From the NCBI RefSeq assembly GCF_003334255.1, contig NZ_QOWU01000009.1: DNA of 64,000 nucleotides, one strand, 5' to 3'. Shown here in pieces: positions 14,988 through 16,388 of the stretch. Position 1 is the stretch's first letter; every line of letters starts with the position of its first letter. The position numbers and the translations under genes are program-made. This DNA comes from Escherichia coli (GTDB taxonomy: Bacteria; Pseudomonadota; Gammaproteobacteria; Enterobacterales; Enterobacteriaceae). A model generated the notes under the pieces. That model did not search any database. It had not been told where the DNA came from and saw nothing but the letters and a program-made list of their open reading frames with translations.

Positions 14988-15087
14988 GCCTGATGCGCTT
15001 CGCTTATCAGGCCTACATAAGGCATTGCAACTGATTGAATGCTTGAGAATTTGTAGGCCGGATAAGGCGTTTACGCCGCATCCGGCA
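14988..15087. repeat. REP/BIME element (two inverted REP units)
   Basis: gcctgatgcgcttcgcttatcaggcctaca and tgtaggccggataaggcgtttacgccgcatccggca, canonical REP palindromes. Confidence 0.7.
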
Positions 15088-15155
15088 TGACCAACGATCA
15101 CGTTATCAGTCATTTCAGGCTGGATGGCTCCAGCCTCGCATTAGCAAAGATGAGA

Positions 15156-16025
15156 TTATTTCGCCTGTGGTGCAGTTTTGCTGGTGGATTGAACACGTAA
15201 GTGATGCAGCGCGCGTAAGCATTGATCCTGGGTTAGCGGTTGGGCGTTATTCGCCGCTACGGTGCGAACATAGACCTGACATGGCACACCCGCGAGTTTT
15301 TTCAGTCGTGGGCTGAAATCAAGCATTCGGCGAGTGATCGCTTCTATTTCTTTACCCGGCGTTGCTTCACGCGTTTTCACCACTGCGCCGCTAAATTGTT
15401 CTTTGCCACTTTCATCTTTAAAGCGGTAAAGCACCGCCAGATAATGGTCGAACAAGTTATGTTTCCATTCCGGTTGGGAATAGGTGTCATATTCCAGATT
15501 GCCATTGTCCTGGCAGTCAACGTCGTATAACGGCAGGAAATCTAACAGTGAGGTAATACGTAATGCCAGTTCACGCATTTCCGCATTATTAATTGCATGA
15601 ATGATTGCTCGCGCCAGCATTTCAATCTGCAACTCATTGACGACTAACTCACATTTGCTACCGTCATGTAGCGTTAATACGAAGGTAAGATTTTCGCCTT
15701 GATTATCGGTAAGTTCCAGCGTGTTAACCCGACGATTAATATCGGCATTTTTAAGCTCATCAACCAGAATTTCTGGGATGTTTTCTGCCATTTTCTTAAT
15801 GACTTTATCGCGAGCTTGCTCATACTGAAGGTGTGCAGCAGCATCCAGTTTATGCTTTTGATGCAGACGACTTTCCAGCGCAATCAGCAGGTCGCGCAGT
15901 TCCATGACAGACATAAAGAACAACGATTCTTTATTGCGAGGTTCTTTAATTTTCAGCGCCAGTGCAATGAAATTATTACTCTTGCGAATAACACCGGTAT
16001 TAACACCCTTGATGCTTATGGCCAT
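15156..16025 (-). CDS. yjeJ: Uncharacterised protein YjeJ
   Basis: ORF track 289 aa, recognised as YjeJ; no known function. Confidence 0.85.
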   Translation of the reverse strand: MAISIKGVNTGVIRKSNNFIALALKIKEPRNKESLFFMSVMELRDLLIALESRLHQKHKLDAAAHLQYEQARDKVIKKMAENIPEILVDELKNADINRRVNTLELTDNQGENLTFVLTLHDGSKCELVVNELQIEMLARAIIHAINNAEMRELALRITSLLDFLPLYDVDCQDNGNLEYDTYSQPEWKHNLFDHYLAVLYRFKDESGKEQFSGAVVKTREATPGKEIEAITRRMLDFSPRLKKLAGVPCQVYVRTVAANNAQPLTQDQCLRALHHLRVQSTSKTAPQAK

Positions 16026-16287
16026 GTAGGTTCTCCCTAACCATTTCTCAATTAAATAATTAATTTTAATTTATAAGCCAGATAAATGGGCTTGGTAGTA
16101 ATAGTTGTTAAAATAACATAAATAGCCGTACTCACTCTATATAAACAGAAAAGAAAGGTTAATTATTGGTGTTAGCTATATAAAAAGTAACAACAGCAAT
16201 GCATATGAATAATTAAAGGTTATGCAACGGGCAAAGATTAAACTTCCCAGTTTAATGACAGGTTGCTGTACTTGCGTTTGTTGCTCT

Positions 16288-16388
16288 TGCCGGATGCAGC
16301 GTAAACGCCTTATCCGGCCTACAGTTCATTGCAAATCCATTCAATTTCAATGCACGATGTAGGCCTGATAAGCGTAGCGAATCAGGCA
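16288..16388. repeat. REP/BIME element (two inverted REP units)
   Basis: tgccggatgcagcgtaaacgccttatccggcctaca and tgtaggcctgataagcgtagcgaatcaggca. Confidence 0.7.

Follow-up and report, generated by a model that had tools for sequence, protein, structure and literature searches.

The gene yjeJ of Escherichia coli, studied here in a stretch of 64,000 nucleotides (RefSeq assembly GCF_003334255.1, contig NZ_QOWU01000009.1; hereafter the window), encodes a protein of 289 amino acids, and its homologues in related bacteria stand as the last gene of a microcin-export cluster at the same chromosomal site. This relationship is new. The other conspicuous features of the locus, an AT-rich promoter region upstream of the gene and a bacterial interspersed mosaic element (BIME) of repetitive extragenic palindromic (REP) units on either side of it, are textbook features of the E. 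coli genome. In the account that we regard as probable, a vertically inherited yjeJ of the microcin-module family, the AT-rich promoter of its own and BIMEs that came later are three independent things. A testable functional context is thereby given to a protein carried by every E. coli, and the YjeJ family proves to be a fourth gene, tightly coupled and so far overlooked, of the microcin export clusters found almost throughout the Klebsiella clade.

YjeJ Homologues in Microcin-Export Clusters

YjeJ has no assigned function, as a reading of this DNA from the sequence alone had stated; the only library match is Pfam PF15922 (YjeJ-like), and scans of NCBIfam, PADLOC and PHROGs gave nothing useful for the protein. 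The family is small (1.84 billion proteins yield 97 representatives at 50% identity), and all members with credible organism names belong to Enterobacterales. The term orphan, used for yjeJ in the sequence-only reading, is therefore apt for the size of the family and not for its range, which extends through that order. In nine fetched contexts, representing eight clusters because L059 and L066 are the same Kosakonia cluster, the YjeJ gene directly follows a gene for a C39-peptidase ABC exporter (PCAT), with 12-30 nt and an AGGAG between the PCAT stop and the YjeJ start.

L051, K. pneumoniae: two peptides of 121-122 amino acids, membrane-fusion protein (MFP), C39-peptidase ABC exporter, YjeJ, then yjeI-groL-groS-yjeH-fxsA-aspA
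L056, Entomohabitans: order and chromosomal site as in L051
L060, K. quasipneumoniae: order and site as in L051, except that the microcin genes come after YjeJ and a frameshift splits one of them
L061: order as in L051, then yjeI
L058 and L062: order as in L051
L055, Budvicia: block of the L051 type at another locus
L059 and L066, Kosakonia radicincitans: block of the L051 type at another locus

The genes yjeI-groLS come next after the cluster in three of these contexts (L051, L056 and L060), and yjeI also follows it in L061. In all nine loci, the exporter genes upstream of YjeJ carry the precomputed Pfam domains PF03412, PF00664 and PF00005, and MFP genes adjoin them. The N-terminus of the L051 exporter contains SEAAECGIACL, HWGMNHYVV and VHDPALG, whose ECG, H and D motifs mark the catalytic triad of C39 peptidases. 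The small open reading frames (ORFs) of the clusters are homologous to one another and combine MKELTVFEMEEI(A/S)GG leaders with Gly-rich cores; the double-glycine leaders MKQLTVFEMEAISGG, MKELTVFEMEEIAGG and MRELSVFEMNEIAGG are examples drawn from L051, L056, L055, L058, L061 and L062, and a cluster peptide gave weak Pfam matches to Bacteriocin_IIc and MccV. Between clusters, identity is 69-83% for the PCAT, 70-78% for the MFP, 40-56% for the microcin and 23-40% for YjeJ. Judged from these sequences, the fast divergence of YjeJ relative to the exporter and the MFP appears to be the pattern of a specificity partner, not that of export machinery.

The clusters have a G+C content of 0.38-0.47 vs 0.55-0.59 for yjeI and groL, and the foreign-like composition of E. 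coli yjeJ (0.452) matches this microcin/exporter module. The suspicion of a foreign origin, raised in the sequence-only reading, is consequently sound with regard to composition, although a recent islet delimited by REPs is not what the locus shows. A chaperone-usher fimbrial operon (PapD, PapC and MrkD-like adhesin) mostly stands before the block, even at different loci.

Fimbrial operon with block: L066 94-9837; L060 1-8843; L061 1-8831; also in L062, L058 and L055

In Klebsiella, the PCAT-linked YjeJ is the only YjeJ, while L061 has a PCAT-linked copy and a second copy next to yjeI, after a LuxR/GerE-type gene. A neighbour-joining tree placed E. coli YjeJ with this second copy and all orphan-type copies, with the PCAT-linked copies outside. 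E. coli K-12 has no such exporter, and the YjeJ-family gene is its sole component of the cluster.

Three further observations were made around these genes. In Kosakonia radicincitans, small ORFs and the gene of a PAAR-motif protein come after the block. A lone YjeJ-family gene (L063, 8001-8858) is carried without exporter on a 47-kb Rep3-type plasmid, beside a Tn3 transposase/resolvase. Between YjeJ and yjeI, L060 holds at 9077-10567 a distinct double-glycine-leader peptide of 95 amino acids and the Gly-rich microcin gene that is frameshift-split (48 + 57 amino acids).

We propose that yjeJ is a vertically inherited, constrained gene whose family would belong to a mobile low-GC module. The module begins with a chaperone-usher fimbrial operon, followed by between one and three class II microcin-like peptides, Gly-rich and with double-glycine leaders, and then by MFP, PCAT and YjeJ; it is present in Klebsiella, Entomohabitans and others at the same site, adjoining yjeI-groLS, while Escherichia, Citrobacter, Salmonella and many other genera keep only the orphan-type copy. 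E. coli yjeJ would then be a retained orphan-type paralogue with a sigma-70 promoter of its own. YjeJ might neutralise or handle the exported peptide, either for self-protection or as an export accessory, and the E. coli copy might persist as an orphan protection gene, which would fit its universal retention, the purifying selection within the genus and the fast divergence between genera. The BIMEs would represent later insertions of REP elements of the repetitive IHF-binding palindromic (RIP)/BIME-1 type into small hairpins at gene 3' ends. The immunity or accessory role of YjeJ is what we infer from sequence, in keeping with the cluster contexts.

A published survey found that, in several species of the Klebsiella clade, almost every assembly carries microcins, and candidates for immunity were screened in it only up to 250 amino acids (Cole et al.; PMC9746304), a limit that would exclude a protein of the size of YjeJ (289 amino acids). 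It is tentatively suggested, as a possibility that we hold to be doubtful, that the YjeJ family represents large soluble factors of a new kind, which protect against or neutralise a widespread family of Gly-rich class II microcins, and that the fixed E. coli copy would cross-protect against microcins of Enterobacteriaceae from the gut or from plants, such as Klebsiella and Kosakonia. If YjeJ does protect against these peptides, it would be a new type of microcin immunity protein, would bear on how E. coli and Klebsiella compete in the gut, and would explain why surveys with a 250-amino-acid candidate limit would have left out such a protein (PMC9746304).

Several points weigh against a microcin-related history and role of the E. 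coli gene. Searches with tblastn for PCAT, MFP and microcins found no relic in the E. coli window or in the 44 related loci L007-L050, and blastn of the K-12 leader against the clusters returned chance 10-13-mers only. That the E. coli lineage has lost the module would follow from the distribution only. The YjeJ tree is a rough neighbour-joining tree with a midpoint root, built on very divergent sequences. Known class II microcin immunity proteins have 51-216 amino acids and are usually membrane proteins (PMC9746304), and YjeJ, with 289 amino acids and soluble, is unlike them. In K-12, delta-yjeJ::bla serves as a neutral linked marker (PMC10679819), and the 35 papers found to mention yjeJ contain no connection to microcins and no experiment linking them. 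In addition, no double-glycine-leader ORF was found in the 12-20 kb section of the window.

An alternative is a housekeeping YjeJ unrelated to microcins, near which the module would have landed only because the gap between groLS and epmB would be an insertion hot spot. The orphan-type clade stands apart from the PCAT-linked copies in the tree, K-12 lacks the exporter, and there is a hint of a Pur-alpha-like nucleic-acid-binding fold. However, the adjacency of PCAT and YjeJ, with gaps of 12-30 nt, recurs at other loci in Budvicia and Kosakonia radicincitans, Klebsiella has PCAT-linked YjeJ only, and the low G+C of the module is common to YjeJ; we consider this explanation improbable.

Conservation, Selection and Composition of yjeJ

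Gene names in the window were taken from the RefSeq annotation of the identical strain and the ORF list. The gene order is yjeH, groS, groL, yjeI (+), yjeJ (-), epmB (-), efp, ecnAB, sugE, blc, ampC and frd, which is that of a K-12-like E. coli chromosome; the region shows 100% identity to several laboratory strains. The features next to yjeJ are as follows.

14600..14953, + strand: yjeI, DUF4156 lipoprotein-like, convergent with yjeJ (RefSeq annotation of the identical strain, ORF)
15156..16025, - strand: yjeJ, 289 amino acids, soluble (no hydrophobic segment), Pfam PF15922 over the full length
16026..16237, - strand: AT-rich leader and promoter of yjeJ, 28.8% G+C (Escherichia-conserved blocks; published SELEX hexamers)
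16420..17448, - strand: epmB (EF-P beta-lysylation), upstream co-directional neighbour with BIME B at its 3' end (ORF, annotation)

The sequence-only reading took yjeJ for a horizontally acquired islet that is H-NS-silenced from its AT-rich upstream region and has the BIMEs as boundaries or insulators. Composition offers some support for such an islet: by windowed G+C, which agrees with what had been expected, the leader is at 29-31% and the gene at 45%, where the window averages 51%; yjeJ is at 40-45% over its 5' two-thirds, and its G+C of 0.452 and third-position G+C (GC3) of 0.452 are the third lowest of 56 window ORFs. Codon usage as a whole is unremarkable, contrary to what had been predicted, since, among the 38 genes with 200 amino acids or more, yjeJ is not one of the 10 that deviate most, and only its GC3 is low. 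Rare codons amount to 13.9 per 1000 in yjeJ, similar to 14.7 in epmB, with 10.4 in the window. The ORF at 2187-3725, with a G+C of 0.42 and 33 rare codons per 1000, is far more atypical than yjeJ.

The distribution of the gene speaks against recent horizontal acquisition. In place of the variable presence that had been anticipated, yjeJ with its leader was matched in 5426 of 5426 complete E. coli genomes (coverage of at least 80% in 5386), and the order efp-epmB-yjeJ-yjeI-groL is kept in 43 loci of about 15 named genera of Enterobacteriaceae, including Escherichia, Citrobacter, Pseudocitrobacter, Kluyvera, Superficieibacter, Salmonella (arizonae, diarizonae), Trabulsiella, Yokenella, Intestinirhabdus, Kosakonia, Phytobacter, Pluralibacter and others; the genome scan for yjeJ loci used an alignment of 8 closer sequences. 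In Kosakonia sp. S29 and Phytobacter (L039, L041 and L050; ~4900-6990), a protein of 572 amino acids that by eye resembles methyl-accepting chemotaxis proteins is encoded between yjeJ and yjeI. The G+C of yjeJ is 0.42-0.46 in Escherichia, Citrobacter, Salmonella, Kosakonia and Phytobacter, and reaches, for example, 0.63 in Pluralibacter.

The ratio of nonsynonymous to synonymous substitution rates (dN/dS) of yjeJ against E. whittamii and E. albertii is 0.04-0.05, similar to that of epmB, and therefore indicates strong purifying selection. Mean pairwise identity is 52% for YjeJ, with 87.5% for EpmB and 85% for YjeI. Citrobacter sp. NCU1 and Awk 4 (L043 and L044; 4001-4852) are a particular case, in which YjeI is 97% and EpmB 90-92% identical to other Citrobacter while YjeJ is only 41-44% identical; from the difference between YjeI and YjeJ we conclude that the yjeJ allele was replaced in place, and the best match of this YjeJ, at 63%, is in isolate RIT691.

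That yjeJ is a decaying, functionless relic is very hard to credit. Its deletion is tolerated and serves as a neutral marker (PMC10679819), insertions of IS1 and IS621 occur in or near the gene in some strains, and the Salmonella enterica entries of YjeJ include fragments. But the intact 289-amino-acid ORF is present in at least 99% of the 5426 genomes, the dN/dS contradicts decay, the AlphaFold2 model is confident (predicted local distance difference test, pLDDT, of 92.7), and the protein has been detected (PMC9508795).

The AT-Rich Leader and Expression of yjeJ

The upstream region that had drawn attention, 16026-16287, has 30.9% G+C vs a window mean of 51.3% (standard deviation 5.6) and belongs to the lowest 0.25% of 262-nt windows. 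While its AT-richness was confirmed, the homopolymeric runs ascribed to it come to four, of 4-5 nt each, vs 2.6 expected. Six other blocks in the window are about as AT-rich. Blocks with G+C of 0.36 or less over 262 nt are found at 1778-2300, 3644-4110, 34436-34750, 51752-52270 and 61333-61820.

The best-supported account is that the AT-rich 210-260 bp upstream of yjeJ are the promoter and regulatory region of the gene itself. RNA polymerase with sigma70 alone binds the yjeJ spacer in vitro, and genomic systematic evolution of ligands by exponential enrichment (SELEX) assigned to it a "constitutive" promoter, TTAACC-17-TAGAGT (PMC3946193). In the window, the -10 hexamer TAGAGT lies at 16139..16134 and the -35 hexamer TTAACC at 16162..16157 on the minus strand, in agreement with the published hexamers (PMC3946193 Table 2); a Shine-Dalgarno sequence GGGAGA lies at 16037..16032. 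The published hexamers are weak, and a consensus promoter scan gave no match in the leader. As RNA, the leader is unstructured (z -0.25). Blocks of the leader are conserved throughout Escherichia, and an AT-rich spacer upstream of yjeJ is common to many genera, at 25-38% G+C. In addition, yjeJ is reported to be among the targets of Nac and to be down-regulated in long nitrogen starvation (PMC7417836), and the YjeJ protein was quantified by proteomics in LB cultures (PMC9508795).

It is possible, at somewhat less than even chances, that H-NS or StpA binds this promoter and dampens yjeJ, as happens at numerous other AT-rich promoters of E. coli; this would be common regulation at the promoter, with no relation to the BIMEs or to a recent transfer. 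The AT content, the maintenance of the spacer in many genera, and a peak of FNR in chromatin immunoprecipitation on microarrays (ChIP-chip), named "yjeI" and detectable only in delta-hns delta-stpA (0.44 vs 0.04 in the wild type; PMC3688515 Table S7), are consistent with such binding. On the other side, the AT-rich tract is short (~250-400 bp), and none of the 987 H-NS sites from genomic SELEX is assigned to the spacer upstream of yjeJ (PMC3946193). No FNR-consensus match with up to 2 mismatches lies in yjeI, and the sole one in 14400-16500 is inside yjeJ at 15750. The hints for H-NS at the locus are thus indirect and conflict with each other. The same FNR peak could be adduced for the silenced islet, but the missing SELEX site, the lack of any match to the H-NS high-affinity motif TCGATAAATT at up to 2 mismatches in 16026-16287, the YjeJ protein found in LB and a rare-codon frequency like that of epmB argue against silencing of acquired DNA.

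Structure and Position of the BIMEs

The REP core CTTATCMGGCCTAC has 8 copies in the window vs 0.44 expected, and 4 of the 8 make up the two BIMEs around yjeJ, whose presence on both sides and two-unit form had been read correctly; the sequence gives their exact coordinates.

14988..15087: BIME A, RIP/BIME-1-like, with a Z-type unit at 14988-15016 (+), a linker at 15017-15052 and a Y-type unit at 15053-15087 (-) (sequence, folds)
16288..16388: BIME B, of the same family as A and inverted, with a Y-type unit at 16288-16322 (+), a linker at 16323-16358 and a Z-type unit at 16359-16388 (-) (sequence, folds)

Both are head-to-head REP pairs in which a 36-nt linker separates a short Z-type unit from a Y-type one, and they form inverted copies across yjeJ (one pair of arms of 60 nt, at 83%, and one of 44 nt, at 93%; the inverted repeats I4 and I5 are 93% complementary). 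REP elements are defined here as imperfect palindromic units with a conserved ...CTTATC(A/C)GGCCTAC tail in alternating orientation, and the two elements supply four exact cores as two inverted pairs with stable folds, their RNA being folded far more stably than shuffled controls (z -3.4 to -4.1). An Rfam scan of the window yielded sub-threshold naRNA4 matches only, which were put down to REP similarity. Their extragenic placement at gene 3' ends is also usual, BIME A being located between the convergent yjeI and yjeJ and BIME B 31 nt past the epmB stop.

With WATCAANNNNTTR as the consensus for integration host factor (IHF), the linker of BIME A contains a candidate IHF site, ATTCAATCAGTTG, at 15040..15028 on the minus strand, which agrees at 12 of 13 positions. 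A third BIME of the window, canonical in appearance and located at 50965-51027, shares the single consensus mismatch of BIME A (linker ATTCAAT....TTG). In the linker of BIME B the IHF site is degraded, without a match at up to 1 mismatch. A special pairing of A and B was rejected, as their units are no more distant from the third BIME than from each other. Moreover, for 5 REP loci over about 58 intergenic gaps in the window, we calculate a probability of some adjacent pair of ~0.31, and the bracketing of yjeJ by BIMEs is therefore unremarkable.

Laboratory ampC amplicons recurrently begin in the yjeJ/epmB spacer at 16026-16419, with six entries in Table 1 of a paper that makes no mention of REP or BIME (PMC12625342). 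No REP core lies near the other amplicon ends (frdA, yjeM) in the window.

Presence and Absence of the BIMEs across Strains

Junction-specific searches of the 5426 complete E. coli genomes detected the BIME A junction in 3549 (65%) and the BIME B junction in 3230 (60%), and all four states occur with yjeJ and its leader intact.

A present, B present: K-12
A present, B absent: O157:H7
A absent, B present: CT265
A absent, B absent: O16:H6

Alignment of occupied and empty sites defined the segments involved.

14971..15123: BIME A insertion, a 153-bp segment missing in strains without A (flank motifs, BIME A, right AGGCTGG copy at 15117-15123)
14964..14970: left AGGCTGG direct-repeat copy flanking the BIME A insertion, equal to an arm of the empty-site hairpin (occupied/empty alignment)
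16257..16416: BIME B insertion, a 160-bp segment missing in strains without B (flank motifs, BIME B, right repeat copy at 16398-16416)
16238..16256: left copy of the 19-nt direct repeat TTAAACTTCCCAGTTTAAT flanking the BIME B insertion, which is a small hairpin in its own right, immediately past the epmB stop (copy spacing 160)

The empty A site is a 49-bp spacer with a 9-bp GC-rich hairpin, GAGGCUGGA/UCCAGCCUC, which folds at z -4.3 and -3.4, and the 160-bp segment of BIME B ends 3 nt before the epmB stop codon. The direct repeats that flank both BIMEs may be the product of the insertion mechanism or of deletion between repeats. Identical junctions of BIME A are found in E. albertii, E. whittamii and cryptic-clade Escherichia; BIME B is present in E. 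whittamii and the cryptic clade and not in E. albertii. Citrobacter has REPs of its own at another point of the yjeI-yjeJ gap. There was no sign of an inversion of yjeJ between the inverted BIMEs, the sampled rows having 100, 93, 91 and 81% coverage and only about 42 genomes falling below 80%.

The proposal that the REPs delimit or insulate yjeJ fails on this evidence, since the gene and its leader occur with both, either or neither BIME. Apart from composition, the FNR peak and the IHF-type site in BIME A, the acquired islet has little to draw on; every E. coli has yjeJ, its synteny extends over several genera, and each BIME is absent from 35-40% of genomes, in every combination, around an intact gene and leader, which makes the islet quite unlikely. 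In the best-supported account, the BIMEs are later, polymorphic and incidental insertions that do not define a unit. The locus also lends itself to tests of how REPs affect neighbouring genes, its four combinations of occupied and empty BIME sites forming a clean natural series.

In three E. coli strains (ET761, A17 and GPEC389), the insertion sequence IS621 of the IS110 family was observed inside the Z unit of BIME A, between ...ATCAGGCCT and AC..., at the window equivalent of ~15012/15013.

IS621 in BIME A: L004 1-495; L064 1115-2095; L065 1115-2095

These cases represent 3 of 30 evenly spaced rows of E. coli genome matches, and a count by the IS621 junction is confounded by other IS621-REP junctions. 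The 11-mer at the insertion is the natural IS621 target. Elsewhere in the window, a Guanidine-II (mini-ykkC) riboswitch, a known element, is located upstream of sugE/gdx at 18602-18648 (+), with an Rfam score of 50.4 bits at a gathering threshold of 32.

Comparison with Known Systems

The two BIMEs resemble the BIME-1 or RIP elements of E. coli, known from the work of Gilson, Bachellier and Hofnung, of Oppenheim, and of Boccard and Prentki. Both consist of inverted Y and Z REP units around a linker of ~35 nt, an IHF-type linker match is present in BIME A and in the BIME at 50965-51027, and both lie just past gene 3' ends and are polymorphic among strains, BIME A being in addition a target of the REP-specific IS621.

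With H-NS-silenced xenogeneic islands, yjeJ has in common an AT-rich promoter and a G+C below that of its neighbours. Unlike such islands, it is not strain-variable, has no reported H-NS SELEX site and gives a detectable protein.

Orphan immunity genes of bacteriocin, contact-dependent inhibition (CDI), Rhs and type VI secretion (T6SS) systems are usually strain-variable. The likeness of yjeJ to these genes is that it is kept alone in genomes without the toxin and is elsewhere linked to a toxin-export cluster, that YjeJ paralogues stand in tandem downstream of a cluster (L061) and on a plasmid (L063), and that divergence is fast between lineages, with purifying selection within them. The difference is that the yjeJ orphan is fixed species-wide and syntenic across genera, and that its immunity function is putative.

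For the clusters of the relatives, the closest comparison is with class II microcin clusters of the MccV type, composed of precursor, immunity gene, the membrane-fusion protein CvaA and the C39-peptidase ABC exporter CvaB (PMC9746304). The clusters with YjeJ share with them the double-glycine leaders, a PCAT with Cys/His/Asp motifs and an MFP, as well as conserved exporters with highly variable cargo and a near-universal occurrence in the Klebsiella clade. They differ in that YjeJ is a fourth conserved gene outside the listed microcin components, that it is soluble and, at ~280 amino acids, above the 250-amino-acid immunity cut-off, and that the module of the relatives travels with a chaperone-usher fimbrial operon, while the E. 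coli window holds only the YjeJ homologue.

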